DNA of 63,136 nt, the filler included. It is 4 parts of 4 records of this genome, joined end to end, with 100 filler letters (N's around TTAATTAATTAA, not from the genome) between each part and the next. Parts side by side here need not be neighbours in the genome. Positions count along the whole stretch, not along the records: positions 41,020 to 57,751 come from SRR20825006_2128; 3 more parts are not named here. One strand, given 5' to 3'. Position numbers and translations under genes: made by a program. Below the pieces are notes generated by a model. That model ran no database searches. It was not told the DNA's origin and saw only the letters and a program-made list of their open reading frames with translations. Every line of letters begins with the position of its first letter. Position 1 is the first letter of the stretch. Positions 4,736-57,851 of the stretch are shown here, piece after piece.

Positions 4736-4924
4736 ATGAAACAGGCGGCACGGACCATCGGGGAACGGCTTGGACAGTTCCTCAAATCCTTCAATCCGCG
4801 AGCCGAATTCCTGACATCGGAAAAGCATCTCCGGGCATCGAACATCATCCTCGCCATGACCGTGGCGATGCTGCTGCTCGTGTTCGGCGCCCGGTTTCTT
4901 GCTGACCTTCTCGGGCACGGCTGA
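4736..4924 (+). CDS. Small single-TM protein (62 aa) between kdpF and kdpB
   Basis: AAGGT upstream; C-terminal hydrophobic helix [16 protein letters not shown]; operon position. Confidence 0.55.
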
Positions 4925-13188: not shown

Positions 13189-13288
13189 NNNNNNNNNNNN
13201 NNNNNNNNNNNNNNNNNNNNNNNNNNNNNNNNTTAATTAATTAANNNNNNNNNNNNNNNNNNNNNNNNNNNNNNNNNNNNNNNNNNNN
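13189..13288. other. Artificial contig linker
   Basis: 44 N + TTAATTAATTAA (stops in six frames) + 44 N; abrupt GC drop across it. Confidence 0.99.
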
Positions 13289-40919: not shown

Positions 40920-41019
40920 NNNNNNNNNNNNNNNNNNNNNNNNNNNNNNNNNNNNNNNNNNNNTTAATTAATTAANNNNNNNNNNNNNNNNNNNNNNNNN
41001 NNNNNNNNNNNNNNNNNNN
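40920..41019. other. Artificial contig linker
   Basis: N44-TTAATTAATTAA-N44. Confidence 0.99.
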
Positions 41020-41079
41020 AGATTTATCGGATTAAATCTGGACTTCCCCTCGTTCCGTAGCTCCGCTGTCGCAAGATAT

Positions 41080-41128
41080 CTTAAGTCTGTGACTTAAGAG
41101 TAGTAGCTCTGCAAGTTTGTAACTTGCA
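41080..41128. repeat. Pair of short REP-like hairpins
   Basis: CTTAAGTC-TGT-GACTTAAG and TGCAAGTT-TGT-AACTTGCA. Confidence 0.55.
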
Positions 41129-41364
41129 TTACAGACAACTGTTTTATTTATAGAATGCCTTTCATTATCCTTGAACATCAACAAACTCATTGTATTACTC
41201 TGCATTAGGATACTATGATTTCCTACGGTATTAACCCAAATTATACCATTACTGCAAATTTTGGCACGCTGGTTTAAGTCTTTGGCACTCCAGTTTTGTG
41301 ATTAGATAGTACTTTCTGAGTAGATAATCTAAAATATTTAAACGAGCACTCAGAATTTTCAAAG

Positions 41365-41655
41365 ATGAAAAAACAAGACCACACCTGTGACTTCTGCCAT
41401 TCAGAAGAAGGAAAACCAAGACCTATCGGAAACTACATCGTTGAACTTAAAGAAATTGATGTACTAGGAACCAATAAAAAAGCCTGTCAAAGTTGTTACC
41501 TCAACACAAAGCGAATATTAAAAGCACAAGCTCAAAGAAGTATGAGAGGGAGCTTTCTCAAAAAACTTAAAAAATTCAGCGTTAAGTTATTCAGTGCTTA
41601 TGTTCTGTTGTTGCTGGTATTCTCTACTACACCTATTTCGTTATGGATTTGTTAG
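41365..41655 (+). CDS. Small C4 zinc-ribbon protein with C-terminal hydrophobic helix (paralog A)
   Basis: CDFC-x29-CQSC; basic linker; TM-like tail; paralog at 54962. Confidence 0.8.
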   Translation: MKKQDHTCDFCHSEEGKPRPIGNYIVELKEIDVLGTNKKACQSCYLNTKRILKAQAQRSMRGSFLKKLKKFSVKLFSAYVLLLLVFSTTPISLWIC

Positions 41656-41707
41656 CAAGCTAAACTTGTCTCTACTCGGAAAAGTCTTTCATTGAGAGAG
41701 GTGTTTT

Positions 41708-41729
41708 TTGACCCGAAAATTCGGGTCAA
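41708..41729. terminator. Hairpin downstream of paralog A
   Basis: TTGACCCGA-AAAT-TCGGGTCAA. Confidence 0.4.
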
Positions 41730-42108
41730 TAGATTGGGTATTTTCGAACTGAAAACGATAGTAATAGGGGGGGTAGGTTATTCAGCTTGCTACCTCGAAC
41801 GTACCTCTAATCATCCAAAGAACTGGTTGAATGATTATCTCTCACAATGGGTGGCTTACTGGAATTGATTAGTTGTTAATGAGGAATTAAGATCAGTATC
41901 TAGATCATCCTTTACATATTAAACCGCATATCTCACTATTCAAACACGACCTTCTATAAGTAACTCCTAATAAATCGAGTTCGGTTTTTGGACAAATTCT
42001 ATCTAATGGGTTATTATCAAAGCATCGATTCAGAAATTCATCAGTTTTTTGGGAACTCTTAAAAAAATATTCGACATTAGTTGATTCCTTAAATGTATTT
42101 TTTTGGAG

Positions 42109-45100
42109 ATGAAACCCACCATTCTAAAGAATCTTTTATTAATTAGTTCCCTTTTTTTTGTAGTTCAAACTGCATTGGCGCAGGATATTGACCTTCAGAA
42201 CTATATAGTCACTCAGTTTGGTATGGAGGAGGGGCTGCCCCAGAGCTCAGTGAACGACATCATTCAAACAAAAGATGGATACATTTGGCTAGCAACTTTT
42301 GGAGGATTGGTTCGCTTTGATGGAAATACCTTTACTACATATGACCGATCAAATACTTCATGTTTGATATCCGATAGATTGTTAAAGATTTTTCCAGACA
42401 AAGATGGGGGTATATGGTTATTCCCTGGTTTTGCTGACACAATTGTCTCTCGGTTTAAGAATGGGGTTTGCACAACCTACAAAATAGGTGAAGGGGTTTC
42501 TTCTGTTGTTGATATGATTGAGGATGAACGTGGAATTATTTGGCTAACTGCTTTTTCTAAAGTATATCGCTTTGATGGAAATGAGTTTTTAGAGGTTCCT
42601 ATTAAAAAAGATGAAGTATCTATCCAAAGAGCAAAAAAGAGTAAAGAGGGTGTTTGGTTTGGGTACGAGAAAAAGATTCTTCATACACTCGGAGATTCAG
42701 TAGTAGAAGTTTATGATTCATTACCAGGTTTAACCTCGAACATAATTAGGATCTATGAACATCCCCTCAATAGTAGAATTTTATTAATTGGGACAAGCTA
42801 TGACGGTATTCTTGAAGTCGACTTAAATCAGGATGATTTTAATTATAAAGCAGATAAACTGCCCTATAATTATTTCCTAAGTTTACAATTTGATAAGAAG
42901 TTTAATTCTTTTGCCATAACACCAGACGGCATAGCTGTTAAAAAAGAGTCAGTGTTTGTGCCATTTAATCCATTTGATAAGGAACAGGGGATTCGGCTGA
43001 AAGCAATATTACAAGATAATGAGGGCAATTATTGGATAGGAACTGGGGGGAATGGTCTGTTTCGATTTCGGAATAAGATAATTTCGATGATTGATAAGGA
43101 TAAAGGCTTGCAGAACGAGAAAATGCTTTCTATAACTCAGCTAAAAAATGGAACTAAGCTACTTTCAACCAACTGTAGTGGTATTTATGAATGGAAAGAT
43201 GGGAAAGCTAGCTTGTCTACTATTCATAAATATTTGGATATTGGATGCTTTTGGTCTGTATTCCAAGATTCTAAAGATAGGATTTGGGTGGGAGGAGGCG
43301 CACCCTACATGACAGAATCTCTTGATAAACCAGGGAAGCTGTTTGGAGTGAAAGATGGATATACTGGTTATTTTGTCTTTGCTATAACTGAAGACTCAAA
43401 AGGAAATATCTGGGTGGCTTCCTCCAATGGAATTTTTATTTATGATGGGAATTCATTTGTAAAAGAAATCACAGAAGATGATGGGCTTTTTTATAGTGAT
43501 GCTAGAGTATTGTATGAAGATGAATCGGGAGTGATGTGGGTTGGAACTAACGGCGGGTTAAATACAATTGATGGCGATGTTGTGTCGAAGATCAAATTGT
43601 TTAACAATGCAGAGCATGCTATTCCTAGACAGCCTGAAGTTAGAGCGATTTATAAAGATGAAGAAGGAGCATTTTGGATTGGAACATACGGTGATGGACT
43701 ATTTAGAATTAAAGAAGGGAAGATTGTAAGCATCACTACGAAGGATGGATTATTTGACAATGTTGTGTCACATATTATTGCGGATAAACTGGGGCATTTT
43801 TGGATGGGGAGCAACCGTGGCATCTCGCGAATAAACAGGCAGGAACTAAATGATTACATTGATGGGAAAATTGGAACAATACACTCCTATTCTTATGGTA
43901 TTTCTGATGGAATGAATTCAGCAGAGACAAATGGAGGATTTCAACCAAGCTCGATAGTGGATTCACTAGGAAATATTTATCTCCCAACAGTTGCTGGGGT
44001 TGCAATTGTGTCTACGAAAACGGTGAGACAGAATGTAATACCCCCTCCTGTATATATTGAAAATTTGAGAAACAATGAAAAGAGTTTGCCTTTATCAGAT
44101 GCGATTACTTTGGCATATGACAATCCTTTTCTTGAAATTAATTATACAGCCATTTGTTTTAGTGATCCTAAGAAAGTACAGTTTAAATATAGGATGGAAG
44201 GGCTAAACGATAACTGGATTGAAGTTGGTACCCGGAGAGAAGCTCTGTATTCAAAGATACCGCCTGGACAATACACCTTTCAGGTGATCGCTAGTAATAA
44301 CGATGGGGTATGGAATATGGAAGGAGCTTCCCTTCAAATTATTGTAGTCCCACCATTTTGGCAAACCGTTTGGTTTTATGGAGTAATAGTCCTCTTCTTT
44401 CTTACCTCAGGTCCTTCAATCTATCTATATCGAATTAAGGTGCTCAAAAAAGAAAACGAAAAACAGAAACGTTTTGCTGAGCAACTAATTGACTCTCAAG
44501 AGCGAGAACGCAGGCGTATTGCATCCGAACTACATGATGGGCTAGGGCAACAAATACTGGTTATAAAGAATCGTGCAGAACTGGCTCAACTACAAGTAGA
44601 TAACCCTACAGAAATTGCTGAACAACTTTCCGAAATCACGAAAAGTGCTGTTATTTCTATCTCGGATGTACGTACGATTTCCTATGGGTTGCGCCCTGTA
44701 CATTTAGAGAAATTTGGACTAACTGAGGCAATTACTAACTTATTCGATCAGATTAAAAGCACCTCAACTATTGAATGGAGTTATCATATCGATCGCATAG
44801 ATGAAACTATTGCAAAGGAAAAAGAGATTAATTTCTACAGAGTACTTCAGGAAGCCTCGAAGAATATTCTCAAACATTCCTCGGCCAGCCAAGCTTCTGT
44901 AATGGTAAAATTATTTGAAACAGAAATCAGAGTTAGCTTGTGGGATGATGGTAAGGGTTTTGCAATGAAAAAAATGGAAGGATTGGGAGGCTTAGGCTTT
45001 CTTGGGATGAAGGAACGTGTAGAGAATTTAGGTGGCTCATTGGTTGTACAGTCTAGTTTAGGTGAGGGAACAGTTGTAAAATTTGTAATACCAATTAATA

Positions 45101-45111
45101 AGAATGGATAA
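42109..45111 (+). CDS. Sensor histidine kinase: periplasmic Reg_prop beta-propellers + Y_Y_Y + TM + HisKA_3/HATPase
   Basis: GLPQSSV..I.Q..DGYIW repeats, QFKYRMEG...W...YSKIPPG.YTF, ERRRIASELHDGLGQ, DDGKGF. Confidence 0.93.
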   Translation: MKPTILKNLLLISSLFFVVQTALAQDIDLQNYIVTQFGMEEGLPQSSVNDIIQTKDGYIWLATFGGLVRFDGNTFTTYDRSNTSCLISDRLLKIFPDKDGGIWLFPGFADTIVSRFKNGVCTTYKIGEGVSSVVDMIEDERGIIWLTAFSKVYRFDGNEFLEVPIKKDEVSIQRAKKSKEGVWFGYEKKILHTLGDSVVEVYDSLPGLTSNIIRIYEHPLNSRILLIGTSYDGILEVDLNQDDFNYKADKLPYNYFLSLQFDKKFNSFAITPDGIAVKKESVFVPFNPFDKEQGIRLKAILQDNEGNYWIGTGGNGLFRFRNKIISMIDKDKGLQNEKMLSITQLKNGTKLLSTNCSGIYEWKDGKASLSTIHKYLDIGCFWSVFQDSKDRIWVGGGAPYMTESLDKPGKLFGVKDGYTGYFVFAITEDSKGNIWVASSNGIFIYDGNSFVKEITEDDGLFYSDARVLYEDESGVMWVGTNGGLNTIDGDVVSKIKLFNNAEHAIPRQPEVRAIYKDEEGAFWIGTYGDGLFRIKEGKIVSITTKDGLFDNVVSHIIADKLGHFWMGSNRGISRINRQELNDYIDGKIGTIHSYSYGISDGMNSAETNGGFQPSSIVDSLGNIYLPTVAGVAIVSTKTVRQNVIPPPVYIENLRNNEKSLPLSDAITLAYDNPFLEINYTAICFSDPKKVQFKYRMEGLNDNWIEVGTRREALYSKIPPGQYTFQVIASNNDGVWNMEGASLQIIVVPPFWQTVWFYGVIVLFFLTSGPSIYLYRIKVLKKENEKQKRFAEQLIDSQERERRRIASELHDGLGQQILVIKNRAELAQLQVDNPTEIAEQLSEITKSAVISISDVRTISYGLRPVHLEKFGLTEAITNLFDQIKSTSTIEWSYHIDRIDETIAKEKEINFYRVLQEASKNILKHSSASQASVMVKLFETEIRVSLWDDGKGFAMKKMEGLGGLGFLGMKERVENLGGSLVVQSSLGEGTVVKFVIPINKNG

Positions 45112-45754
45112 ACAAAAAAGCCTTTTAATAGCAGATGATCATGCCCTTATTCGTAATGGGTTGCGGCAAGTAATTGAATCACAGAACCTATTTGATGTCA
45201 TAGAGGCCAAAAACGGGGAAGAAGCGTTAACGCTTATCCGGGAAAAGAAACCAGATATTACTATTCTTGATATAGAAATGCCTTTAGTTTCAGGATTTGA
45301 AGTCGCCAAGCAGGTTCAAAAAGAATCACTTACAATTGATTTAGTCTTTCTTACCATGTTTAATGATGAAACAATCTTTAATAAAGCCATGGATATTGGT
45401 GTAAAAGGATATGTTTTAAAGGAGAATACGGTCACGGAAATAATGCAGTGTATACAATCTGTGTTAGCAGGAAAGCACTACTTGAGTCCCGCTATTTCAG
45501 ATTTTTTAATTAATCGTAATAAAAGATTAATTTCTACCCCTACCGATAAGAATGGAATAAATTTCCTAACTCCAACAGAAAAGAATCTTTTAAAACAGCT
45601 TGCTATGATGAAAACCAATCAGGAGTTGGCTGAAGAATTTAGCGTTAGCATTAAAACCATTCAAAACCATCGCAATAACATTTGCAACAAACTTGGGCTA
45701 CACGGCGCCCACGCTCTTCTCAAATTTGCCGTTGAACACTCAGTACAGTTTTAA
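45104..45754 (+). CDS. NarL/LuxR-family response regulator
   Basis: IADDH, LDIEMP, GYVLK, LTPTEK...S.KTIQNHR.NI..KL; overlaps kinase stop. Confidence 0.95.
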   Translation: MDKQKSLLIADDHALIRNGLRQVIESQNLFDVIEAKNGEEALTLIREKKPDITILDIEMPLVSGFEVAKQVQKESLTIDLVFLTMFNDETIFNKAMDIGVKGYVLKENTVTEIMQCIQSVLAGKHYLSPAISDFLINRNKRLISTPTDKNGINFLTPTEKNLLKQLAMMKTNQELAEEFSVSIKTIQNHRNNICNKLGLHGAHALLKFAVEHSVQF

Positions 45755-45784
45755 ATACCTGATTACAGTTTAAGTACATGCGTT

Positions 45785-45824
45785 ATAGGTACAACTACCT
45801 ATACGATTGGGTAGTTGTACCTAT
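45785..45824. promoter_or_regulatory. Tandem palindromic boxes, putative NarL-family binding sites
   Basis: ATAGGTA-CAAC-TACCTAT followed by TTGGGTA-GTTG-TACCTAT; the pair also forms a 15-bp inverted repeat. Confidence 0.65.
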
Positions 45825-45906
45825 TGGAATCCTCTGGTACAAGATTGATTTTCATGTTGGCTTGGGGGGTACAAACCCATCTAGAATTAAATCCTAAAAT
45901 CAATTA

Positions 45907-46278
45907 ATGAAAATAATGATTGTGGACGACCATGCAGACATGAGGCGGGTCTTGAGGAGTATTGTTTCATTTTCAACCGTTGAAACATCCGAAATAATCG
46001 AATGCGACAGCGGTGAGGAAGCAGTAGGCAAATACATACTGCAACAGCCCGACTGTGTATTGATGGATGTTGAGTTGAAAGGTATGAACGGCTTTGAAAC
46101 AACCGAAAAAATATACACTCAAGATTCAAATGCGAATGTGGTAATTGTAACAAGTTATGACACTACCGCATTTAGATCTAGAGCTGAAAAACTCCACGTT
46201 AAAGGATTTATATCAAAAGATAAGCTTTCCGACATCAAGCAAATTTTACAAAACATCACCTATAATAGGGGTACATAA
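45907..46278 (+). CDS. Stand-alone receiver-domain protein
   Basis: IMIVDDH, LMDVE, VTSYD, FISK; no output domain; TAATG coupling to the next gene. Confidence 0.9.
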   Translation: MKIMIVDDHADMRRVLRSIVSFSTVETSEIIECDSGEEAVGKYILQQPDCVLMDVELKGMNGFETTEKIYTQDSNANVVIVTSYDTTAFRSRAEKLHVKGFISKDKLSDIKQILQNITYNRGT

Positions 46279-49200
46279 TGAAACAATTTTTACTAACCAT
46301 TACGATTTTTGTGTTTCTAACCGGGGTAGCAATGGCCCAAACAGTGACATCAATCAGTCCATCTTTGAACTCAGATGATGTGGCTGTCACTTCAAATATT
46401 ACCATTAACTTCAGTGAAGGGATGGACAATGCCACCATAACTTCATCAACGGTGATTATTAGCGGCTCAATGAGAGGGCTTTATAGCGGCTCTTTTTCTT
46501 ATGGTGCAACTTCCGCAACCTTTGATGCTGATGATTCATTTTTTCCAGGTGAATTTATAACTGTGGTAGTGACAGAAGATGTTAAAGATGCTGGTGGTGA
46601 TGCGATAACTGCACCGTACAGAACTACATTCACAACTGCAACTTCGGGTGATGGTGAGTTTAGTGTAGGGGATGAGTACACCGCAGATGGATCAAATTTC
46701 ACAGATTGGTCAATCACTGCTGATATCAATGAGGATGGGTACATTGATATTATTACTTTGGTTCCGTCTCAGAACAAGATGTCGATTTTCACAAATGATG
46801 GTGATGGTACTTTCAGCGGACCGACCAACTATACCACTGCAAATTCTTTCCAAGTTGAAGCAAAAGACGTAGATCAGGATGGCTCTCTTGATTTGGTAAC
46901 TTCAAATAATAATGCCTTCATGATGTCGGTGTTTATTAATAACGGCAGTGGTTCTGGGACATTTGCTTCAAAAGTTGATTATGCAAATGGCTCGAGTTGG
47001 AATGGAAAGGCACTTACTACTGGTGATATTGACAACGATGGAGATGAGGATGTACTAGTTGATATTATTATTGGCGGTGCAGTAGATAGTGTTCAGATTT
47101 TCTTAAATGATGGGGATGGTACGTTCACCGTAGCCGATGGGATATCCACAACCGATGGGTTTGAACAAATAAAGTTATGGGATATTGACGGTGATGAAGA
47201 TCTCGATTTTGTTGGCGTAAGTCCTGGATTGGGCCAATTAGTGACCTATAGGAATGATGGTTCTGGATCCTTTTCATTACATACAACCAGTGCTATAACA
47301 TCATCATCCTACCAATTTATTTTAGCAAACTTCAAATCATCTTCTGCTGATATTGAAGCAATTACTGTTGACCAGAGTGACGATGTGGTTCGATATTTAG
47401 GGGATGGCATTCCTTGGGCATTTGGCGCTTCACCAGCTACAATTAATGTTGGTGACACACCTGTGGGAATTGCTTCAGGTGACCTTGATGGCGATGGACA
47501 TATAGATGTTGTGGTTTCAAATGCAATAGATATGAATTTATCCATATTAATGAATGATGGAACTCCTTCATTTACAGAAAGTAATTATTCAACTGGCTCA
47601 ACTTATGCGAATTTCATTTCTTTGGCTGATGTTGATAATGATGGTGATCTTGATATTGTGATGGGGAATCAAGATGGAACGATTAAAGTTGCATTCAATT
47701 TTTCTGGTCCTGCAGTGACTTCTATTACACCAGCAAACGGATTAACTGAAATAGCCTCAAATGATAGTATAATTGTTGTTTTTAATGAAGCAATGAAAGC
47801 TTCAACACTTAATTCAACAAATGTTACGGTTGTTGGAACTACTGCAGGAACAATTACTGCTTCCTATTCTTATGATTCTAATGATAGTACGCTAACTATC
47901 ACTCCCAACTCAGATTTTATACTTGGCGACGAGATTACTGTTACTATAACCACAAATGTAACAAGCGATGCAGGTGTTGCAATCACTTCAAGCGCCACAT
48001 CAACTTTTGATATTGAAGGTGTGAATGTACAATCTACGGCTCCTTCCGCAAATGCTACGGGTGTTTCAGTGAGCAGTAACATAGATATTACTTTTAATGA
48101 TACGATGGATAATACCACGTTAACGACCAGCAATATATTAGTGTTTGGCTCCTTAAGTGGATCAATCCCAGGTTCAATTTCAATAAACAGCAACACAGTT
48201 ACATTCAATCCAACTGATGATTTTATTCCGGGTGAAGAAGTTTCAATAGTTGCTACAAGTGGTATCGAAAACAGCAGTGATGTTGCTATGGATGGCCCGA
48301 ATGTAATCCGGTTTAAAGTTCAAGGGTCCGTTGGATATATCACTCATGATGATACAGTTAAGTCGGTTGGGCAAGATCCAAGTGACATTGTGATTATGGA
48401 TGTTGATGTTGATGGGTACCTCGATCTCGTAATCACCAATGGTACCGATAATACGGTAAGTATTATGCTTAATGATGGTAGCGGTGGATATTCATCGGCA
48501 ACTACACTTGCCACTGGCTCATATCCATCAAGTATTGTTGCGGGTGATTTTGATAACCAAAACGGTATGGATTTCGTGGTGACTAATTACTCCGATAATG
48601 ATATTAGAGTATTTACCAATAACGGAAGTGGTACTTTTAGTACCGCCGATTACGCAGCTGGCTCAGGTGCAGTAGATGCCGTTGTTGCCGATTTCGACGG
48701 AGATGGTTACCTCGATATTGCTGTACACAACAGGAGTGCAGGTAACGAACAGATCTTTTTAAATGATGGTGACGGAACCTTTACATCTGCAGGAACAATA
48801 TCAACAACAAGCAATATGAACCGCATTTTTGCGGCCGATTTAGATAATGATGACGATATAGATATTATATCAGGTGGTGCCGGTTATGGATTATACACAT
48901 CATTAAATAATGGCGATGCAACTTTTGCTGCTGCTATCTCTACTTCTATTCCTTCCTACGATGTCGAATTTGTAGATTTGAATGGTAACAATTATTTGGA
49001 TTTGGTTGTTTCTGATTACAACTCCAATGAAGTTTCAGTTCACCTGAATGATGGTGATGGTACTTTTGGTGTAGCCACCAATTACACGGTTTCGAAGGCC
49101 CATGAATTGTCAATAGTTGATGTAAATGATGATGGCGATATGGATATTGTTGCCCTTAACTTTTCTGAAAAGAGCGGTCAGGTACTGGTAAATGGTGGTA

Positions 49201-52200
49201 GTGGTACATTTACAACAGGTCAAACCTTTGATGTAGGAGCAACTCCGGACAGAATGGAATTTGCCGATCTTAATGAGGATGGGCAGATGGATTTTGTTTC
49301 TGTGGCAAGAACAGAAGATGCCATTTCCATTAATTATGGTACAGAATATGTTGAGGTGAGCTCATTCACTCCAACTGAGAATGCAATTGATGTATCATCT
49401 ACCGCAAATATTACTGCAACTTTTAACGATGATATGGATTCAGGTACGTTAACTGATTCTACTGTTTTAATATCTGGTTCTAATTCAGGATTGATTTCAG
49501 GTGTCTTCACATACGATGGACCCTCAAAAACAATGACTTTTAATCCGGATAACGCATTTAAAGCGGGTGAAAAAATTAATGTAATCTTTAGTACAGGAAT
49601 TAAAAACTCGAATGGGAGTGCTCTGACAATACCCACACAATTTACATTCACAGCAGAAGCCTCTGGCGTCGGGTATTTTTCTTACGCAGTTGAGAGTAGT
49701 GTATTCCCTAATAGTGTGAGTTCACTTTTTGGTGCCGATTTAGATGGTGATGGTGACCAGGATATGGTAGGTCTTTACAATCTATATATGTCGGTTCGAA
49801 TTAATGACGGATCAGGAACTTATGGCTTTGGAACAGCAACTGATTACTTCATGAGTGGAGGTGGAGCTTCTATACTACCAGCGGATCTCGACAATGACGG
49901 TGATGTTGATATGCTTGCTATGAGAGGTAACTCCAAGTATTTGGTATTCATGGAGAATGACGGGTCGGGCACGTTTAGTCGTAAAGACAGTATATCTACG
50001 AATCAGGTGGTATCTGGTGGCCGATGGACCACGGGCGACTTTAACAATGACGGCAATATAGATGTTGCCATCATAGACCAAGGAGTTTCTAACTATGCAT
50101 TATACATTTATACCAATGACGGGGATATGAATTTCAGCTCGTATTATCAGAGTGATGATTTTGATGATAGTGCAAGTCTAACCTCAGCAGACTTAGATAA
50201 TGACGGTGATTTAGATTTTATACTAAGTGAGCGTTATGAGTATTATTCTGTAATACTTAGCAATGGTGATGGTACATATGGATCTGAAACAACATATGCC
50301 GCACCTAATGGTTCATATACTCGTGCAACGGTCGGAGATTTTGATGGTGACGGTTATATGGATATAGCAATTGCAAATCAATATTCAGAAGATGGTAACA
50401 GCTTTTCAATACGTTTGAATGATGGCGATGGCACATTTGGTGATAAAACAGATCACGCGACAACAAATGATAATTATTGGGCATCAACCGGAGATATGGA
50501 TGGCGATGGTGATCTGGATATTATTATAGGAAAAAGTAATAGCTTGTCCATCGCTTTCAATGATGGAAGTGGGGGGATCGACGAAGTTGTAGATTATTCT
50601 ATTACTGGTTCCAATATAGGAACAGCCATTTTTGACTATGATGGTGACGGAGATTTGGATATTGTGAATCCGGCATATCCCAACCTATCTTATTTAACCA
50701 ACGAAGCACCAACTACACCTTCAAGCGAAGTTACAAGTTTAACTTTCAGCAATAATTATGGTGAGCAAATTACAACCAATTGGAGTAATGGTGATGGAAC
50801 TGGAAGGTTAGTACTTGCTAAACAAGGTAGTGCCGTAGATGCAACTCCTACCGATGATACATTCTATACAGCTGATGATTTCGGAATAGGCACACAACTG
50901 GGAACCGGGAATTATGTAGTTTATGCGGGGTCTTCAAATTCAGCAGATATTGCGGGGTTGACGGTAAATACGACTTACCATTTTGCTGTATTCGAATACA
51001 ACAAAGGCGGTACTGAAATCAAATATCTCACTTCTAGTCCTGCTACTGGTAATGTAACAACAGCAGAAGAGCCAACTACGTCCGCGACATCGGTTGCATT
51101 CTCTGTGGTTAAAGATACTCGTATGACAATTAGCTGGACTAATGGTGATGGCCAAAATCGTATTGTTTTAGTTAAAGAAGCTGGAGCAGTAGATGGAACC
51201 CCTTCAGATAATACATCTTATAGCGAGAGTACAGAATTCGGTGAAGGTGCAGAAATCGGGTCTGGTAACTATGTGGTATATAATGGAAATGGAAGTTCAG
51301 TAACTGTAACTGGTTTAACTGCTGAAACAACTTATCATGTATCAGTGTTTGAGTTCAACGGAACTGACGGAATGGGAAGATTTAAAACCACTTTCCCAGC
51401 AATAGGAAATTCTACTACTATGCCAACTCCAGCTATCTGGAGTAAAAATGATAGTACTCTGGTATTTACAAAAGCAAATTTTGGGGATCATAACCAAGCC
51501 GCTAATCAAGATCGGATTACTGAAAATATTTGGCTTACAAGAGCGGGAAGTGGCTACTTATTTAACTATGCAGACGAGCTGGAAGATGGTGATAATTCCC
51601 CTGCTGGTACTCAATGGGCATTAGGAACCACTGACAGCCTTTCTACTTTAACTTTCCAAAGTTTTAGTGATCTATGGAGTGGTAATGCTAGTAATATTCC
51701 AGGAAATGATATGGTAGCTTACTTAGAAGCTGATAATGTATATCTAGATATTAACTTTTCGTCATGGACAAGTGGGTCATCTAATGGCGGTGGTTTTTCT
51801 TATACACGGGCTAAAGGGCCTGAACCAACTCCAATTATACAATCTTTTCAGGATTCAGCTGGATTTGCATATAAGTTCGATGGTGGAGATACCGAATATT
51901 ATATGGAAGCATATCTTAGCGATTATGCTATGGGAAACCAATTTAGTGTTGAAATGTGGGTAAAACCAGATTCTGTAGGGATTGACCAAGTATTTTTAGA
52001 ACTATACTCTGAATTATATGTAGGTATAAATAGCTCCAATAAATTCTATGCAACTCATAGTGAACCAAATGCGGGTAGCGGTGGGGGCGAAGAATATGTG
52101 ATTTCAAATAATATCAAAAGTGAAAATCAAAATGGACGGTCACTTGTAGCTTCTAAAGCTGAACTTGCTGACAATACCAGTAATATCGCTACAAAAGATG

Positions 52201-54923
52201 AGTGGTATCATGTAGCATTAACTGGAGAATCCGGTGGTTTGTTAACACTTTATGTGAATGGTGTTGCAGTGGATACCACATCTGTGAGTGATGTTACAAT
52301 TGACGAACAATATTGGTATATCGGTAGTGATTATGACGAGGATAAATATTTCTATGGGACAGTTGATGAACTTAGAATATGGAAATCGGTTAGGACAGCT
52401 TCTCAGATAAGATCATTTATGCATACACCATATACGGGTGCAGTAGGGCGTTTAGTAGCATACTGGCAGTTTAATGAGGGTACCGGAGGCTCTTCTTTTG
52501 ATGGTTTAAATAATTACGAGGCAGAGTCTTATAATTCCGACGAAGCTTCATGGACTTCCTCTGATGTTCCAATTGGAGATGGTACTGTTGAAGAAACTTC
52601 TGATTTCCAAAGTGGAACTGCCAATATTGGGAATGCTTCCCTTACAATGGCTGATGGTTTCGATAACCCAGTTGATGTACAGGTTACAGAAGTAGAAGGA
52701 AATCCAAATCAATTCCCATCAGGTTTTACTTCGGGACTTGGAGGTAAGTATTTCGTAATTAATTTATTTGGTGATCCAGGTACATTTAGTGCAAATCTTA
52801 CATTAACCTATGGCTCTGGTGTAATTACAGCAACTCAGCAATCCAATCCTAATCTAGTAAAACTATATAAGAGAGGATCTAACTCTACTGGCGCATGGTC
52901 AGAAATTGCTAGCGCAACATCTGCTGTTGAAGCAACTGGTGTAGTTACTTGGACTGGAATCACATCGTTCAGCCAATTTATGGCCGTTACCGATACATTA
53001 ACTCCATTTAGTCTCGAATTGGCCGATGGGGCAGATGTAGTTTCCTATAAAGATAGCGCCTATACTTTTGAATCTAGTTTCTTCCAACTAGTTGGAACTT
53101 ATACGGATTCGGCATTAACGATTAATTCAAAATCCACGTTAAACGGTTCTTTATATCTAGACCAAAATTCGAATGGAGACTATGATATAGGCACCGACTC
53201 TTTACTTACTTCTGGAAAAGAACTTACATATACACCAAGCGGAAGTGTAAAGTTGAGATACGCTTCATCTACAATAGGTGTTGAATCAGCAGTAATAAAA
53301 CTACAAACTAGCCAAAGTGCTGATTCAGTCTCTTTAGATTTCTTTACAGCAGAAGGTAGTCCAAGTCTAGCTGGTACTGCCGATGAAAATGGTTGGTATC
53401 TGTTGTCCAATCCGTTCACCACTTCTTTAGGAGATCTCTTAGATAATATCTGGACGCAAGGCGCACCCAATTCTGATGCTCCTGGGGGTGACGCAACCTT
53501 GTTTACGTTTAGCCAAGACAGTTCAAAATATGTAGCAATTTCAACCGATCTTGATACTACTAAGTTGGCTGCTGGAACTGGATTGTTAGCTTACATTTTT
53601 GCCGATGATGATAATAATTCAGGAACTCCTTTAGTGAATAATGGTTGGCCAAAAACACTTACTAACTATGGTAATCCATTTGGTACCGATGTATCTGTAA
53701 CAATCAAAAATGTGGATCATGATGGTTTATCAGGAACATCAGGTAGCGAAGGCTTTGCTTTACTTGGTAATCCTTATGGCTGGCCACTTTCTGCCGACTC
53801 AGTAATTGCAACCATCAAACGCGAAGATGCACTGGCCAATAGCTATGTGTACCGTTGGAACCCTGTTGAAAAACAGTACCAATTGGTTACAACTGGAGCT
53901 ATTGAAGCCTATGAGTCTTTCTTTGTGCGAATCGTCACTTCTGGAGCAACCGCAAACCTAAGTTTCGATTATGATGATGCAGATATAGCAGATCCTTCAA
54001 AAAAGGTGGCCAATAATCCATTTGAACTGATACTGACTCACTCAAAAAGTGGATTCAAGTCCCGTTCGTATCTACGTTTTGATGAGAAAGCATCTGATGG
54101 TATTGATCCGTTCGATGGTTATTACCTGGGCTCCTATGCAAGGAATTATTCCAACCTGTATACTCAAGTTAACGACCAAAGACTTACAATTAATAATATT
54201 CCATCAAATCTTGATCAAGAAGTTGAGTTCCCAATGTACATAGATGGAACACTGTCAGGTGAATATGATTTAGTATGGAACAGCGAAAGTCTTCCAAAAG
54301 ACTTTAGATTCATTCTTACTGAAGTAGCCACGGGTACAGAAATAGACTTAGCAACACAGAACTCTTATTCCTTTAGTGACGGACTTATGGCTAAAAAAGT
54401 TATTACTAAGGAGGCGACAAGTAAGTCTGTTGATTCGGATTTGGAAGAGGAGGAAAACATCGATGGAAAAACCGTTTCATCAGAATTAGATGAAGATGTA
54501 AGTGTGCAGTTACTAGATTCGCAATCCGAAAAATCTGCAACGGATCCAAAAGTTGAAGCTAAGGCTAAGGCAAGTAGCTCTGATGCACTTTTTGTCTTGA
54601 AGATTACTCCACTGCTTGCGTCAGGAAACGAAAACGAAGATGGGTTGGGTATACCAACAACAGTAGAACTTGAACAAAACTATCCAAATCCGTTCAATCC
54701 AACGTCAGTAATCCGGTTTGGAGTTCCAAACACAGCTGAAGTTCAACTGGAAGTATTCGACGTACTTGGCCGAAAAGTGATGACGCTTATAAACAACGAA
54801 ACCAAACAGGCAGGTCGATATAATGTTCAATTCGAAGCTCGGAACTTGGCCACAGGAATGTACATTTATCGTCTCGTAATAGGGGATAAAATACTAACCA
54901 AGAAAATGCTTCTTATTAAGTAA
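46278..54923 (+). CDS. 2881-aa secreted protein: Ig-like (Big_5) domains, three FG-GAP clusters, two Fn3-like repeats, LamG-like domain, T9SS type-A C-terminal domain
   Basis: Signal peptide (AMA-Q); many DxDxDGDxD motifs; I.I.FSE.MD..T Ig motifs; WYHVA...LYVNG...GTVDELRIW; LEQNYPNPFNP...FDVLGRKV...LATGMYIYRL...KKMLLIK. Confidence 0.92.
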   Translation: MKQFLLTITIFVFLTGVAMAQTVTSISPSLNSDDVAVTSNITINFSEGMDNATITSSTVIISGSMRGLYSGSFSYGATSATFDADDSFFPGEFITVVVTEDVKDAGGDAITAPYRTTFTTATSGDGEFSVGDEYTADGSNFTDWSITADINEDGYIDIITLVPSQNKMSIFTNDGDGTFSGPTNYTTANSFQVEAKDVDQDGSLDLVTSNNNAFMMSVFINNGSGSGTFASKVDYANGSSWNGKALTTGDIDNDGDEDVLVDIIIGGAVDSVQIFLNDGDGTFTVADGISTTDGFEQIKLWDIDGDEDLDFVGVSPGLGQLVTYRNDGSGSFSLHTTSAITSSSYQFILANFKSSSADIEAITVDQSDDVVRYLGDGIPWAFGASPATINVGDTPVGIASGDLDGDGHIDVVVSNAIDMNLSILMNDGTPSFTESNYSTGSTYANFISLADVDNDGDLDIVMGNQDGTIKVAFNFSGPAVTSITPANGLTEIASNDSIIVVFNEAMKASTLNSTNVTVVGTTAGTITASYSYDSNDSTLTITPNSDFILGDEITVTITTNVTSDAGVAITSSATSTFDIEGVNVQSTAPSANATGVSVSSNIDITFNDTMDNTTLTTSNILVFGSLSGSIPGSISINSNTVTFNPTDDFIPGEEVSIVATSGIENSSDVAMDGPNVIRFKVQGSVGYITHDDTVKSVGQDPSDIVIMDVDVDGYLDLVITNGTDNTVSIMLNDGSGGYSSATTLATGSYPSSIVAGDFDNQNGMDFVVTNYSDNDIRVFTNNGSGTFSTADYAAGSGAVDAVVADFDGDGYLDIAVHNRSAGNEQIFLNDGDGTFTSAGTISTTSNMNRIFAADLDNDDDIDIISGGAGYGLYTSLNNGDATFAAAISTSIPSYDVEFVDLNGNNYLDLVVSDYNSNEVSVHLNDGDGTFGVATNYTVSKAHELSIVDVNDDGDMDIVALNFSEKSGQVLVNGGSGTFTTGQTFDVGATPDRMEFADLNEDGQMDFVSVARTEDAISINYGTEYVEVSSFTPTENAIDVSSTANITATFNDDMDSGTLTDSTVLISGSNSGLISGVFTYDGPSKTMTFNPDNAFKAGEKINVIFSTGIKNSNGSALTIPTQFTFTAEASGVGYFSYAVESSVFPNSVSSLFGADLDGDGDQDMVGLYNLYMSVRINDGSGTYGFGTATDYFMSGGGASILPADLDNDGDVDMLAMRGNSKYLVFMENDGSGTFSRKDSISTNQVVSGGRWTTGDFNNDGNIDVAIIDQGVSNYALYIYTNDGDMNFSSYYQSDDFDDSASLTSADLDNDGDLDFILSERYEYYSVILSNGDGTYGSETTYAAPNGSYTRATVGDFDGDGYMDIAIANQYSEDGNSFSIRLNDGDGTFGDKTDHATTNDNYWASTGDMDGDGDLDIIIGKSNSLSIAFNDGSGGIDEVVDYSITGSNIGTAIFDYDGDGDLDIVNPAYPNLSYLTNEAPTTPSSEVTSLTFSNNYGEQITTNWSNGDGTGRLVLAKQGSAVDATPTDDTFYTADDFGIGTQLGTGNYVVYAGSSNSADIAGLTVNTTYHFAVFEYNKGGTEIKYLTSSPATGNVTTAEEPTTSATSVAFSVVKDTRMTISWTNGDGQNRIVLVKEAGAVDGTPSDNTSYSESTEFGEGAEIGSGNYVVYNGNGSSVTVTGLTAETTYHVSVFEFNGTDGMGRFKTTFPAIGNSTTMPTPAIWSKNDSTLVFTKANFGDHNQAANQDRITENIWLTRAGSGYLFNYADELEDGDNSPAGTQWALGTTDSLSTLTFQSFSDLWSGNASNIPGNDMVAYLEADNVYLDINFSSWTSGSSNGGGFSYTRAKGPEPTPIIQSFQDSAGFAYKFDGGDTEYYMEAYLSDYAMGNQFSVEMWVKPDSVGIDQVFLELYSELYVGINSSNKFYATHSEPNAGSGGGEEYVISNNIKSENQNGRSLVASKAELADNTSNIATKDEWYHVALTGESGGLLTLYVNGVAVDTTSVSDVTIDEQYWYIGSDYDEDKYFYGTVDELRIWKSVRTASQIRSFMHTPYTGAVGRLVAYWQFNEGTGGSSFDGLNNYEAESYNSDEASWTSSDVPIGDGTVEETSDFQSGTANIGNASLTMADGFDNPVDVQVTEVEGNPNQFPSGFTSGLGGKYFVINLFGDPGTFSANLTLTYGSGVITATQQSNPNLVKLYKRGSNSTGAWSEIASATSAVEATGVVTWTGITSFSQFMAVTDTLTPFSLELADGADVVSYKDSAYTFESSFFQLVGTYTDSALTINSKSTLNGSLYLDQNSNGDYDIGTDSLLTSGKELTYTPSGSVKLRYASSTIGVESAVIKLQTSQSADSVSLDFFTAEGSPSLAGTADENGWYLLSNPFTTSLGDLLDNIWTQGAPNSDAPGGDATLFTFSQDSSKYVAISTDLDTTKLAAGTGLLAYIFADDDNNSGTPLVNNGWPKTLTNYGNPFGTDVSVTIKNVDHDGLSGTSGSEGFALLGNPYGWPLSADSVIATIKREDALANSYVYRWNPVEKQYQLVTTGAIEAYESFFVRIVTSGATANLSFDYDDADIADPSKKVANNPFELILTHSKSGFKSRSYLRFDEKASDGIDPFDGYYLGSYARNYSNLYTQVNDQRLTINNIPSNLDQEVEFPMYIDGTLSGEYDLVWNSESLPKDFRFILTEVATGTEIDLATQNSYSFSDGLMAKKVITKEATSKSVDSDLEEEENIDGKTVSSELDEDVSVQLLDSQSEKSATDPKVEAKAKASSSDALFVLKITPLLASGNENEDGLGIPTTVELEQNYPNPFNPTSVIRFGVPNTAEVQLEVFDVLGRKVMTLINNETKQAGRYNVQFEARNLATGMYIYRLVIGDKILTKKMLLIK

Positions 54924-54961
54924 TTGAGAATGATAAATAGACTTATTTAACATTACACACC

Positions 54962-55375
54962 ATGAACATCAACGCCAAGAAATGCGATTTTTGCCAATCT
55001 ACCGAGGGGTTATCACGCCCCATCGGTGGCTTTGTGGTAGAATTAAGACAGGTTGAGATAGATGGAAAAAACAAAATGGCTTGTCAAAGCTGTTACCGCT
55101 TTCACTTAGAAACAAGTAGAATTATGGAAACTAAAAGAGTAAACCAAACAACTTTCAAGAACTTCATGCAAAAAATAAAGGCCATAAGCGTTAGAGTTTT
55201 TTACGGGCTATTGTTTATATGCTATTTTGCAAGCTACGCATTTGCGCAAGGACCTCCAGGATTACCTGGATTTCCCGATGCACCCGACGCTGCTCCTATT
55301 GATGGTGGACTAGGACTGCTAGCCGTTGCAGGTGGAGCGTACGCTTGGAAGAAACTAAAATCAAAGAAAGGTTAA
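54962..55375 (+). CDS. C4 zinc ribbon + signal peptide + Pro-rich linker + PIDGG (PID-CTERM-like) sorting tail (paralog B)
   Basis: CDFC-x29-CQSC; YAFA-QGPP cleavage-like site; APIDGGLGLLAVAGGAYAWKKLKSKKG. Confidence 0.85.
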   Translation: MNINAKKCDFCQSTEGLSRPIGGFVVELRQVEIDGKNKMACQSCYRFHLETSRIMETKRVNQTTFKNFMQKIKAISVRVFYGLLFICYFASYAFAQGPPGLPGFPDAPDAAPIDGGLGLLAVAGGAYAWKKLKSKKG

Positions 55376-55720
55376 TGCTAGCATAGTATAATCCTAATCA
55401 ATACTCGTTCGCTGTTGTAGCTCTCCATGCCTTCCTGAACAATAATGAGTTTAGGGGGGTAGAAGCTTAGTAATTAATATGAACTATCTTTTATTGATGA
55501 TTTGCTACATGGAATAATATTTAAGGCCTAAAATCGCAACACGAATTCTTATTATAGAACAAACGTCTCGCTTGCCTCTTCCCAATTCTAGGACAGGTCA
55601 AAACCATTCATCCTAAATAAATCCTCAGTTGGGTAATTGGTTTATAAAATCATAACTTTATAGATGTTGCTTTCGCACGATGTGAAAGCGTTAATTTTTC
55701 TATTCATCAAACATAATTTT

Positions 55721-57604
55721 ATGAAGAAACTTGTTCTTGGGTTCATGCTAGTAAGTATGGCCTATGGTTGTTCTCCAAAAATGGGAGATAGCCTAAAGAG
55801 TCCACTAGCAACAGAAACTCCCATAGCTACAGCTATAAACTTAGCTAACGTAATAAACGATAAAGTGTGGGTTGAGATCGATCCCGGTTTATTCACTCAA
55901 AGTATGGTAACCTATCGATTACCAAAAGTAGTACAAGGAACCTATGCTGTAAGCGACTTCGGTAGCTTTGTTGATAGCTTAAAAGCTTTCGATTATTCTG
56001 GTAAAGTGATACCCTCAACTAAAATCGATGAAAACTCTTGGACTATTAACAATGCCCAAAAACTCGATAAAATTGTGTATTACGTAAATGACACTTTCGA
56101 TATCGAACGAACAGATAAGCCTACCCCGTTTTCGCCATCAGGTACCAATATTGCCGATGACAATTACATGCTTAACCTGCACGGATTTATCGGCTACTTT
56201 GATGAACTCAAGAACAGTCAGTATACGCTTCAAGTTACTGCGCCAGCTAGTTTTGAAAAATCATCGGCTTTAGAGCGTGTAAGTTCTACTACCATTGACG
56301 AAGGCTTTACTGTAGTTGATTTATACCATGCCGACCGTTATTTCGACATCACCGACAACCCAATGATGTACGGCGATTTAGATACCGAAGAATTTCAAGT
56401 AGGTGATATCAAGATTGTATTAAGCGTGTATTCTCCAAATGGAGTGCATACTGCTGCTGAAATTAAGAAAACTGTTTTTGAGATGATGAAAGCTCAAAAA
56501 GCGTATTTAGGAGAGATGAACAGCACTCCTCGTTACGATATCTATTTATATCTAGCGGATCAAAATGAAACTTCTCCAACAGGTTTTGGTGCTTTAGAGC
56601 ATCACACTTCTACAGTAGTAGTACTTCCAGAAGCATATCCAGCTCAAGCATTAAGTGCTTCTATGATTGATGTAGTATCGCATGAGTTTTTCCATATTGT
56701 AACTCCACTTTCAGTTCACTCAGAAGACGTACATAATTTCGATTACAATGCACCAACTTTTTCTAAGCATTTATGGATGTACGAGGGCGTAACTGAATAC
56801 TTTGCAAGTCATTTCCAAGTGTATGAAGGTCTTCAATCTCGAGAAGAATTTTATTCAAAAATAAATGACAAAATTTCTACCTCACTTAGTTTAGCCGATG
56901 ATATGAGCTTTACTGAAATGAGTGAGAATATTTTGGACGAACCGTATGCATCTAACTATTACAATGTGTACATGAAAGGTGCACTTATTGGTATGTGTGT
57001 TGATATCTTGATGCGAGAAGAAAGCAATGGCGAGCGTAGTATACTTTCTCTTCTTAAACAACTATCTGAGAAATACGGTAAAACTAAAGCTTTTGAGGAT
57101 GATAACTTGATTGCTGAAATCACAGCAATGACTTATCCATCAGTTGGTGAATTTTTAACCACTCATGTTGTTGGTGGAACTCCCATCGATTACAATGTAT
57201 TCTTCGACAAAGTAGGTCTTGAAATGGGTGAAGAAGAGATTGAAACTTCCTTACTATTTGTAGGTCAAGTTCCTTTTATTGATGCAAATCCAAACACAAA
57301 AGAAATCTTTTTTAGAGATGTTGAGCTTAATTCTTCATTGAATGAAATGGGAATCCAATCAGGAGATGTGGTAAAGTCGGTGAACGGAACAGAATACACA
57401 TTAGACAATGTTCGTCCGCTCATTCAAGCTTCTTTCCAGTGGACACCAGAAACGGATATCTCTTTTGTAGTACTAAGAGATGGTGAAGAAATAGAACTTT
57501 CTGGTAAAGTAGGCTCGCCTATTCTAATGCAAGGGAAGCTAATGGAAAATCCTGAAGCTACTGAAGGACAAGTTCAGCTTAGAAATTGGTGGTTAGAGAA
57601 GTAA
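55721..57604 (+). CDS. M61 glycyl aminopeptidase family lipoprotein with PDZ-like domain
   Basis: Lipobox YGC; GALEH; SHEFFH; LWMYEGVTEY. Confidence 0.92.
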   Translation: MKKLVLGFMLVSMAYGCSPKMGDSLKSPLATETPIATAINLANVINDKVWVEIDPGLFTQSMVTYRLPKVVQGTYAVSDFGSFVDSLKAFDYSGKVIPSTKIDENSWTINNAQKLDKIVYYVNDTFDIERTDKPTPFSPSGTNIADDNYMLNLHGFIGYFDELKNSQYTLQVTAPASFEKSSALERVSSTTIDEGFTVVDLYHADRYFDITDNPMMYGDLDTEEFQVGDIKIVLSVYSPNGVHTAAEIKKTVFEMMKAQKAYLGEMNSTPRYDIYLYLADQNETSPTGFGALEHHTSTVVVLPEAYPAQALSASMIDVVSHEFFHIVTPLSVHSEDVHNFDYNAPTFSKHLWMYEGVTEYFASHFQVYEGLQSREEFYSKINDKISTSLSLADDMSFTEMSENILDEPYASNYYNVYMKGALIGMCVDILMREESNGERSILSLLKQLSEKYGKTKAFEDDNLIAEITAMTYPSVGEFLTTHVVGGTPIDYNVFFDKVGLEMGEEEIETSLLFVGQVPFIDANPNTKEIFFRDVELNSSLNEMGIQSGDVVKSVNGTEYTLDNVRPLIQASFQWTPETDISFVVLRDGEEIELSGKVGSPILMQGKLMENPEATEGQVQLRNWWLEK

Positions 57605-57630
57605 TACTTTTCTAAAAGACTCTTATTCCG

Positions 57631-57661
57631 AAAGCCTCGCCCCAAAAGCGAGGCTTTTTTT
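57631..57661 (+). terminator. Intrinsic terminator
   Basis: AAAGCCTCGC-CCCAAAA-GCGAGGCTTTTTTT. Confidence 0.85.
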
Positions 57662-57751
57662 ATATAGAAAACATTGGGAATTATCAGAGCAAAGGGAGAT
57701 GTGTTAGATAATTCGAAGATAGAAATGATAGTTTTTTAAGACTCGGTCATC

Positions 57752-57851
57752 NNNNNNNNNNNNNNNNNNNNNNNNNNNNNNNNNNNNNNNNNNNNTTAAT
57801 TAATTAANNNNNNNNNNNNNNNNNNNNNNNNNNNNNNNNNNNNNNNNNNNN
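57752..57851. other. Artificial contig linker
   Basis: N44-TTAATTAATTAA-N44; GC jumps sharply. Confidence 0.99.

Follow-up and report, generated by a model that had tools for sequence, protein, structure and literature searches.

A Zn-ribbon and PID-CTERM fusion in the window

The stretch of DNA analysed here, referred to throughout as the window, is 63,136 nucleotides (nt) long, and between its positions 54962 and 55375 it carries a single ATG-started open reading frame (ORF) for a protein of 137 amino acids (aa) in which a zinc ribbon (Zn ribbon) precedes a signal-peptide-like segment and a PID-CTERM sorting signal. The gene is genuine, and its host is a marine Balneolaceae bacterium. Its layout – Zn ribbon, basic region, hydrophobic helix, AFA/Q (a slash marks the predicted cut), PIDGG, transmembrane segment, KKLKSKK – had been given in a preliminary description of this DNA and is borne out by our reading of the ORF (Table 1), with the polar basic linker region read as R46-R78.

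The sorting motif, hydrophobic helix and basic cluster form the extreme C-terminus, such that PIDGG-LGLLAVAGGAYAW-KKLKSKKG closes the protein. Residues 112-134 match the NCBIfam model NF046080 (PID_CTERM) at 36.8 bits against a cut-off of 26 (E 2.4e-9), in agreement with the earlier proposal that the tail is an exosortase-type sorting signal. A local copy of Pfam gave only chance-level matches to the 137-aa protein, and PF28310, which is precomputed on all homologues including forms without the Zn ribbon, presumably models the PID part for that reason. The segment that ends in AFA/Q starts at residue 69-79, behind the Zn ribbon, and is N-terminal only with a start at Met69. In an AlphaFold2 model of the full-length protein, with a mean predicted local distance difference test score (pLDDT) of 78, a hairpin Zn ribbon is followed by an unbroken helix over residues 42-95, a coil, and a second helix over 117-133. 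The Pro-rich peptide between the two hydrophobic segments is 11-16 residues long in relatives. A promoter and terminator scan around the gene found nothing beyond shuffled expectation.

Table 1. Features of the 137-aa gene and of the contig on which it lies.
Feature	Position	Strand	Basis or remarks
Paralog A: Zn ribbon, linker, C-terminal hydrophobic helix then stop, 96 aa	41365..41655	+	43% identity over 83 residues, E 9e-23
Reg_prop/Y_Y_Y/HisKA_3 kinase	42103-45111	+	Two-component cassette upstream of the cargo gene
NarL-type regulator	45104-45754	+	Two-component cassette
Receiver-only protein	45907-46278	+	Two-component cassette; overlaps cargo start by 1 base
Type IX secretion system (T9SS) cargo, 2881 aa: Big_5, FG-GAP_3, fn3, Laminin_G_3, pre-CTD module, T9SS type A C-terminal domain (CTD)	46278..54923	+	CTD at 54678-54920
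Pre-CTD module, ~440 residues (cargo 2360-2800)	53355-54677	+	Unassigned in Pfam and NCBIfam; precedes 72 of 88 PID genes at 25-99% identity
Whole ORF: Zn ribbon, linker, hydrophobic helix, 16-aa Pro-rich peptide, PID-CTERM; 137 aa plus stop	54962..55375	+	In-frame orthologues L002, L003 and L004, 97, 93 and 88% identical
Zn-ribbon module, residues 1-50	54962..55111	+	Knuckles C8xxC11 (54983-54994) and C41xxC44 (55082-55093)
Polar/basic helical linker, residues 45-78, final amphipathic basic stretch MQKIKAISVR	55094..55195	+	Model helix 42-95; stand-alone members end likewise
Met69, candidate internal start, 27 residues before A/Q	55166..55168	+	ATG; Met kept in relatives
Hydrophobic segment V79-A95 (17 residues, final AFA), candidate signal-peptide h/c region or first membrane helix	55196..55246	+	A95/Q96 nearly invariant; model helix stops at A95
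Predicted signal peptidase I site A95/Q96	between 55246 and 55247	+	Same A/Q after signal peptides of stand-alone PID micro-proteins
Pro-rich peptide Q96-A111, 16 residues, QGPPGLPGFPDAPDAA, predicted exported	55247..55294	+	Sequence; coil in model
PID-CTERM domain: P112-IDGG, short Gly/Ala-rich helix LGLLAVAGGAYAW, KKLKSKKG tail	55295..55372	+	NF046080

Conservation of the in-frame fusion

The fusion is conserved in frame among relatives, whose loci and genomes are designated here by L and G numbers. Full-length in-frame fusions account for 25 of the 43 homologues found at E<=0.01 (130-152 aa, 37-97% identity, 93-100% coverage), the remaining 18 being shorter forms or fragments, and C8, C11, C41, C44 and A95/Q96 are invariant or near-invariant among the full-length ones. 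When one genome per species was scanned, 229 relatives came up; nearly all of the 72 loci retained belong to Balneolaceae (Balneola, Gracilimonas and Fodinibius), with three variant copies in other Bacteroidota besides. Reading the frames in these loci gave 35 distinct fused proteins, often several per genome, and the stand-alone PID micro-proteins or fragments came to 57 distinct sequences. No stop was found within any of the 35 fused forms, and the same join recurs in independent assemblies (L009, L010, L013, L018 and L051), complete chromosomes and an isolate genome among them.

Differences between the window and its close orthologues L002-L004 fall mostly at third codon positions; against L004 (L004:10001-10411), codons 1-68 show seven synonymous and seven non-synonymous changes, with nine of 15 base differences at position 3. 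A stop between the Zn ribbon and Met69, which the preliminary description had singled out as telling against the fusion, does occur in the distant relative L067, where the Zn ribbon and PID parts are two ORFs separated by a stop and a frame change, and several relatives have the parts as separate genes; the close relatives are intact.

We also note that synonymous differences from L004 are unevenly distributed, with seven in codons 1-68 and 25 in codons 69-137. Paralogues may have exchanged the PID half, or the 5' half may be constrained at the nucleotide level. Decayed copies were seen as well: a PID tail without signal peptide or start at L010:15311-15460, and a fusion-sized frame with one in-frame TGA at G097:C10:347008-347169.

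The PID-CTERM signal and exosortase X

Five Balneolaceae genomes contain 5-12 PID-CTERM matches each (40 in total), all in open frames of 35-182 aa, and among 101 sampled genomes of the class the 150 listed of 227 matches are likewise all in open frames of 31-182 aa. Each of the five genomes has exactly one exosortase-family gene, of ~175 codons, a type of gene that the preliminary description had suggested looking for. The example at L074:1411-1926 is exosortase X (XrtX), with 204.4 bits to NF046081 (cut-off 170) and 67.7 bits to TIGR04178 (cut-off 23), and XrtX also matches PF09721. It occurs once in every PID-positive genome examined, including G007, the genome of the 97% orthologue, which has XrtX at 204 bits, 11 PID matches and five Zn-ribbon genes, two of them fused.

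Across the single sample of 101 genomes, XrtX is present in 49 and PID-CTERM in 47, all 47 of the latter being XrtX-positive, and the Zn-ribbon family is found in 30, all inside the 47 PID-positive genomes. About one third of the 89 Zn-ribbon matches in this sample lie in open frames of at least 130 aa, the size of a fusion. Among the matches listed, the PID-CTERM micro-proteins are the only putative substrates seen for the single Balneolaceae XrtX, and the adjacent accession numbers of NF046080 and NF046081 suggest paired curation of the two models. A full-text literature search returned no paper on PID-CTERM, and the XrtX hits listed were unrelated by title; the descriptions of the NCBIfam models and PF28310 may already cover some of what is reported here.

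Tripartite C-terminal signals consisting of a motif, a hydrophobic helix and a basic cluster, handled by a polytopic exosortase-family enzyme, are characteristic of the PEP-CTERM/exosortase and PGF-CTERM/archaeosortase A systems, which sort many proteins of ordinary size. PID-CTERM is similarly tripartite and XrtX is similarly an exosortase-family enzyme, but every listed PID-CTERM carrier is a micro-protein with an open frame of 31-182 codons, so that the tag constitutes most of the protein. The usual carrier has 55-90 residues and a plain N-terminal signal peptide; the 137-aa protein resembles it in that its C-terminal 23 residues exceed the curated cut-off, and differs in having ~70 residues of folded Zn ribbon ahead of the signal-peptide-like segment.

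Beside the XrtX gene itself, a 158-aa membrane ORF (L074:1910-2386) overlaps the XrtX end and belongs to no family in Pfam or NCBIfam, with a DegT-type aminotransferase-like gene located upstream; the ORF may encode an XrtX partner.

PID genes usually follow a subclass of T9SS cargo genes

The loci contain 92 PID genes, of which the 88 with at least 1.6 kb of upstream sequence were counted. A T9SS CTD is encoded within 700 nt upstream and on the same strand for 79 of these 88, and the pre-CTD module is also upstream for 72. The statement in the preliminary description that PIDGG-type small proteins occur beside T9SS substrates, given there as established, thus holds here. Each genome encodes ~70 CTD genes at E<=1e-5, and the PID genes follow those CTDs that are most like that of the window; we therefore gave up the idea that any CTD match marks a special subclass, since specificity is confined to the CTDs of higher identity and the pre-CTD module. 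PID micro-protein genes usually follow a subclass of T9SS cargo genes, and in the window the cargo stop lies 38 nt upstream of the ATG at 54962, a position at which stand-alone micro-genes also start.

PorP/SprF-like partner genes are encoded just downstream of T9SS cargo genes with type B CTDs. The small PID gene is comparable in its position directly 3' of a T9SS cargo gene and in its recurrence with each cargo paralogue (79 of 88), whereas its product is a predicted inner-membrane micro-protein with an exosortase tag and not an outer-membrane beta-barrel, and the CTD of the window cargo matches the type A model TIGR04183.

A family of small C4 Zn-ribbon proteins

The N-terminal 58 residues of the 137-aa protein belong to a family in which four Cys are invariant across a 35-sequence N-terminal alignment (A2); the aligned homologues are 22-47% identical, and several residues besides the Cys are invariant also. 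A search with the family profile (1.84 billion proteins, E<=1e-3) gave 139 representative clusters. By our classification, 109 of these have a Zn ribbon, a polar linker and a short basic amphipathic tail (mostly 55-110 aa), ten have a C-terminal hydrophobic helix in the manner of paralog A, 12 have the Zn ribbon fused to PID-CTERM, and eight are partial or spurious. Residues 1-78 have no Pfam or NCBIfam match, and the stand-alone members have neither a precomputed Pfam domain nor an NCBIfam match. Judged by sequence, the Zn ribbon appears to represent a previously undescribed family of small C4 zinc-ribbon proteins, predicted to be cytoplasmic.

AlphaFold2 models the Zn-ribbon domain (mean pLDDT 85) as a zinc-knuckle beta-hairpin (residues 29-40) followed by a helix, and the two CxxC knuckles placed on this hairpin fit the C4 zinc ribbon structural class, with zinc binding predicted. 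The Zn-ribbon profile found nothing below E 0.5 among PDB sequences, Foldseek had no match in the PDB at E<=0.001, and a wide VIA-align search reached a best Z of 5.0 (the Lsr2 dimerisation domain), with the ClpX zinc-binding domain, FYVE and HNH at Z 3-4, scores that are all within the range of common arrangements. Residues 1-68 match only unnamed small hypothetical proteins in the ESM Atlas.

Like generic C4 zinc ribbons and the fingers of HNH/beta-beta-alpha-Me proteins, the Zn ribbon has two CxxC knuckles on a beta-hairpin with a helix behind it, and HNH domains appear among its low-Z structural neighbours; it differs from the HNH type in lacking the catalytic His of the second strand and the Asn before the second knuckle, and Pfam HNH has no match on the 137-aa protein. 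Possibly the family branched off from the beta-beta-alpha-Me fold and lost its catalytic activity; no named family could be assigned to the Zn ribbon. The weakest profile matches (P0161, P0171 and P0173-P0176) contain HNH-like motifs of the form CxxCGA..HP..AH..N..CxxCH and match Pfam HNH below threshold (E 0.008-0.02).

Paralog A, on the same contig, is conserved in the relative genome G007 (L084). Its Zn ribbon and terminal helix had been likened to the product that cleavage of the 137-aa protein would leave, a likeness that we also see and that extends to ten of the 139 representatives. From its sequence, paralog A looks like a fusion that has lost its PID part; a frameshifted PID part following it was considered and discarded, as no PID remnant lies downstream in any frame.

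Two side observations concern peptidase genes, both identified by eye: a Zn-ribbon subfamily with CITCYK as its second knuckle (L109:4046-4999) lies 46 nt upstream of a putative Ste24/M48-type membrane peptidase gene, and at L087:1426-3095 a stand-alone Zn ribbon is convergent with a putative M48 peptidase.

The two modules are linked and separable

The Zn-ribbon and PID modules are linked yet separable, and each also exists alone. They occur as adjacent separate genes in the order Zn ribbon then PID (L067), PID then Zn ribbon (L046, L058, L064, L089 and L107) or Zn ribbon-PID-Zn ribbon (L072 and L091). The locus with the cargo gene upstream and an M61 peptidase gene downstream holds a fusion in the window, L002 and L068. 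At L092, L094, L095, L097, L098, L102 and L108, a stand-alone Zn ribbon comes directly after a T9SS CTD gene and a PID gene is absent. An M61 peptidase gene between PID and Zn-ribbon genes 1.9 kb apart in three genomes was also considered as an arrangement and rejected, the gap in L109 being occupied by two unrelated genes on the opposite strand.

A tree of 57 Zn-ribbon domains, built on only 47 columns and with many forks unresolved, interleaves fused and stand-alone forms, with 11 state changes of which at least two are forced by well-supported branches. The fused L050 nests, with 99% support, together with four truncated orthologues from four genomes (L094, L095, L100 and L102) that stop just after the basic stretch, and paralog A is nearest to fused forms. 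A complex predicted from a stand-alone Zn ribbon (A3) and the PID micro-protein encoded next to it (A4) scored 0.00, and, being without controls, this speaks neither for nor against binding.

Setting of the gene

The window consists of four contigs joined by runs of N and TTAATTAATTAA linkers at 13189-13288, 40920-41019 and 57752-57851. The G+C contents of the contigs are about 57-63%, 32-48%, 37-40% and 66-71%, and the metagenome bin behind the window is probably mixed. Neither the 137-aa protein nor PID-CTERM was found in the nearest genome searched, G001, which is probably kin to another contig of the mixed window.

The contig that carries the 137-aa gene (41020-57751, ~38% G+C) has seven genes, all on the + strand: paralog A, the kinase, the NarL-type regulator, the receiver-only protein, the T9SS cargo, the 137-aa gene and an M61 peptidase. 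The order kinase/regulator/receiver/cargo is repeated in L002, L013, L016, L025 and L050, and receiver followed by cargo is seen in at least 11 loci with fused Zn-ribbon/PID genes (L002-L004, L006, L012, L013, L015, L016, L018, L025 and L050).

Start and cleavage sites

Stand-alone PID micro-proteins have a signal peptide of 22-24 residues that ends in small-x-A/Q, and they begin at the residue equivalent to Met69 (for example, L005:17578). Among the 35 fused forms, 30 have a Met 27-32 residues before A/Q, followed by the basic stretch, the exceptions being L004:17804, L009:9944, L021, L022 and L045. The equivalent Met is absent from all eight stand-alone Zn ribbons that bear no trace of a former fusion, and of four truncated ex-fusions three have kept it and L100 has Val. 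Because a Met at this distance is kept in 30 of 35, an internal start at Met69 is plausible; the alternative start raised in the preliminary description gains support from this.

Both fusions without a usable internal Met (L004:17804 and L045) keep A/Q, which argues that the full-length form can also deliver the peptide. A/Q further follows the signal peptides of the cargo and the kinase in the window, and it matches the Bacteroidetes Q-rule (PMC5837995, PMC10653852).

A proposed two-product precursor and its alternatives

The layout of the ORF, the persistence of the fusion in relatives, the separate existence of each module and the links to XrtX and to T9SS cargo are what our data show. On this basis we favour, with about even confidence, the view that the 137-aa protein is a two-module precursor that signal peptidase I divides, one product being a Zn ribbon tethered to the membrane and the other a substrate of the exosortase; the topology, both cleavages, internal initiation and the role of the Zn ribbon are what we infer. 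Module 1 (residues 1-78) belongs to the Zn-ribbon family, which normally has a basic amphipathic or hydrophobic membrane-seeking tail, and module 2 (residues about 69-137) would be a complete PID-CTERM micro-protein with signal peptide, Gln-first Pro-rich peptide, PIDGG, short helix and basic tail. The Zn ribbon would fold in the cytoplasm, V79-A95 would insert with its N-terminus in and its C-terminus out (N-in/C-out), and signal peptidase I would cut at AFA/Q. The first product would be a 95-residue Zn ribbon tethered to the inner membrane face, much like paralog A, and the second a 42-residue type-I micro-protein whose N-terminal Gln would be cyclised and whose PIDGG end would be handled by XrtX; initiation at Met69 probably also gives module 2 alone. 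For the Zn ribbon itself we assume an accessory role in the cytoplasm, in which it would adapt or regulate the cargo/micro-protein cassette and not act as an enzyme.

A more elaborate scheme, which we offer tentatively and think unlikely as a whole, is that one ORF, its protein split by signal peptidase I, yields products on the two opposite sides of the inner membrane, a tethered cytoplasmic Zn-ribbon regulator and an XrtX-processed Pro-rich peptide that serves the T9SS cargo, for instance as its anchor or acceptor; every time a peptide is exported or processed, the regulator would remain behind as a stoichiometric token that reports on, or feeds back to, the two-component-regulated cassette, and the internal Met would give peptide without token.

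A number of observations weigh against the two-product precursor. That signal peptidase I would cut at a hydrophobic segment lying 78 residues from the N-terminus is our assumption, and the conserved A/Q could be maintained for the Met69-initiated product alone. As to internal initiation, the 18 nt before the internal ATG average 53% A, compared with 30% at 4762 internal ATGs of long ORFs (none of 5000 resamples reached 53%), a bias that is confounded by the Lys/Glu/Asn-rich linker encoded there and that falls to just 39% A in the leader of the window itself. The searches against solved structures, by fold and by sequence, yielded generic zinc fingers at most and gave no functional lead for the Zn ribbon. 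L053 and L055 carry a plain PID micro-gene without Zn ribbon at the locus that is syntenic on both flanks, and because many stand-alone Zn-ribbon genes are far from PID or T9SS genes (L087, L088, L090, L093, L099, L103, L105 and L106), the function of the family need not concern PID micro-proteins. XrtX was seen in the genomes of relatives only, and the co-occurrence of the Zn ribbon with PID-positive genomes is confounded by phylogeny, since apparently a single bacterial family is involved.

The alternative that survives best, rather unlikely in our judgement, is that V79-A95 is a signal anchor that is not cut, such that the protein forms a hairpin with both ends in the cytoplasm (N-in/C-in) and the Zn ribbon remains joined until XrtX acts, the exosortase then separating or remodelling the parts. 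A 17-residue hydrophobic stretch behind a folded 78-residue domain would be consistent with this, as would the helix that AlphaFold2 draws unbroken over 42-95, and a helix in this position can be a stable anchor, as in the tail-anchored ten of 139 representatives and paralog A. Yet the pattern small-x-A/Q at -3/-1/+1 is equally well conserved in the fused forms and in the plain signal peptides that stand-alone micro-proteins carry, and the tail-anchored family members that lack the PID part lack this motif also, which speaks for a cut.

We consider improbable the strong form of what the preliminary description inferred, in which the stub-bound Zn ribbon is the principal functional product and is freed by intramembrane proteolysis as a soluble cytoplasmic regulator, with the exported peptide mainly a trigger or by-product. 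The commonest state of the family (109 of 139), a soluble Zn ribbon with a short amphipathic tail, is how a released stub would look, and the truncated orthologues that end just after the basic stretch in four genomes resemble it too; moreover, there is precedent for signal peptidase as the site-1 protease of membrane regulators (PMC4183432, PMC8844934). Against this, the seven genes of the contig include no sigma factor or other obvious target, and the PID part exists without a Zn ribbon at the syntenic locus and is the more conserved of the two, with mean column identity of 53% (A4) versus 45% (A2), which argues for selection of its own.

The precedent is that of the anti-sigma factors RsiV and RsiP, in which signal peptidase cuts at site 1; the cytoplasmic domain then sits on a remnant of the helix and can be set free by a site-2 protease (PMC4183432, PMC8844934). 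The predicted layout of the 137-aa protein is like theirs: an N-terminal domain in the cytoplasm, a single membrane helix, a site of the signal peptidase type just beyond the membrane and an extracytoplasmic part. It differs in that the contig at 41020-57751 has no sigma-factor gene (the extracytoplasmic function type included), in that the protein has no HxxxCxxC motif or match to an anti-sigma domain, in that its predicted extracytoplasmic part is 16 residues and a second helix and not a ligand-binding domain, and in that its cleavage is a prediction. With no sigma partner and no anti-sigma motif, the 137-aa protein is not a member of the RsiV/RsiP group.

Less probable still is that the locus is an ordinary PID-CTERM micro-gene, translated almost only from Met69, with the upstream frame a decaying relic of a separate gene. 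The internal Met kept in 30 of 35 fused forms, the start of stand-alone micro-proteins at the equivalent residue (L005:17578) and the A-rich leaders across the family all fit such a gene, but a relic would hardly retain four invariant Cys and further invariant residues at only 22-47% identity, with zero stops in 35 fused forms, changes between close relatives that are mostly at third positions, and an upstream ATG placed 38 nt past the cargo stop like the starts of stand-alone micro-genes. That an assembly or frame error joined two small neighbouring genes, as the concatenated contigs of a metagenome bin and the different frames of the two parts in L067 might suggest, is practically refuted by the same in-frame join in the independent assemblies L009, L010, L013, L018 and L051.

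Implications

Exosortase-type sorting is widespread, although what exosortases attach their substrates to is, to our knowledge, largely unknown, and we know of no established connection between the exosortase and T9SS envelope pathways. In the Balneolaceae the whole substrate set of XrtX is apparently made of micro-proteins of ~40 mature residues, each encoded behind a T9SS cargo gene of its own from one subclass, which makes the system unusually tractable and joins the two pathways; a cultured, non-pathogenic carrier with one XrtX gene exists, represented by the isolate genome with L013. The sorting system is catalogued but unstudied, and the part that is new is an undescribed cytoplasmic module ahead of the signal peptide. 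The fusion to this module provides a cytoplasmic handle on an otherwise tiny exported peptide, and it defines an unannotated small-protein family with 139 representative clusters. If the protein is split as we propose, it would provide a bacterial instance of a functional 'signal peptide' domain, and a two-in-one gene with an internal alternative start.

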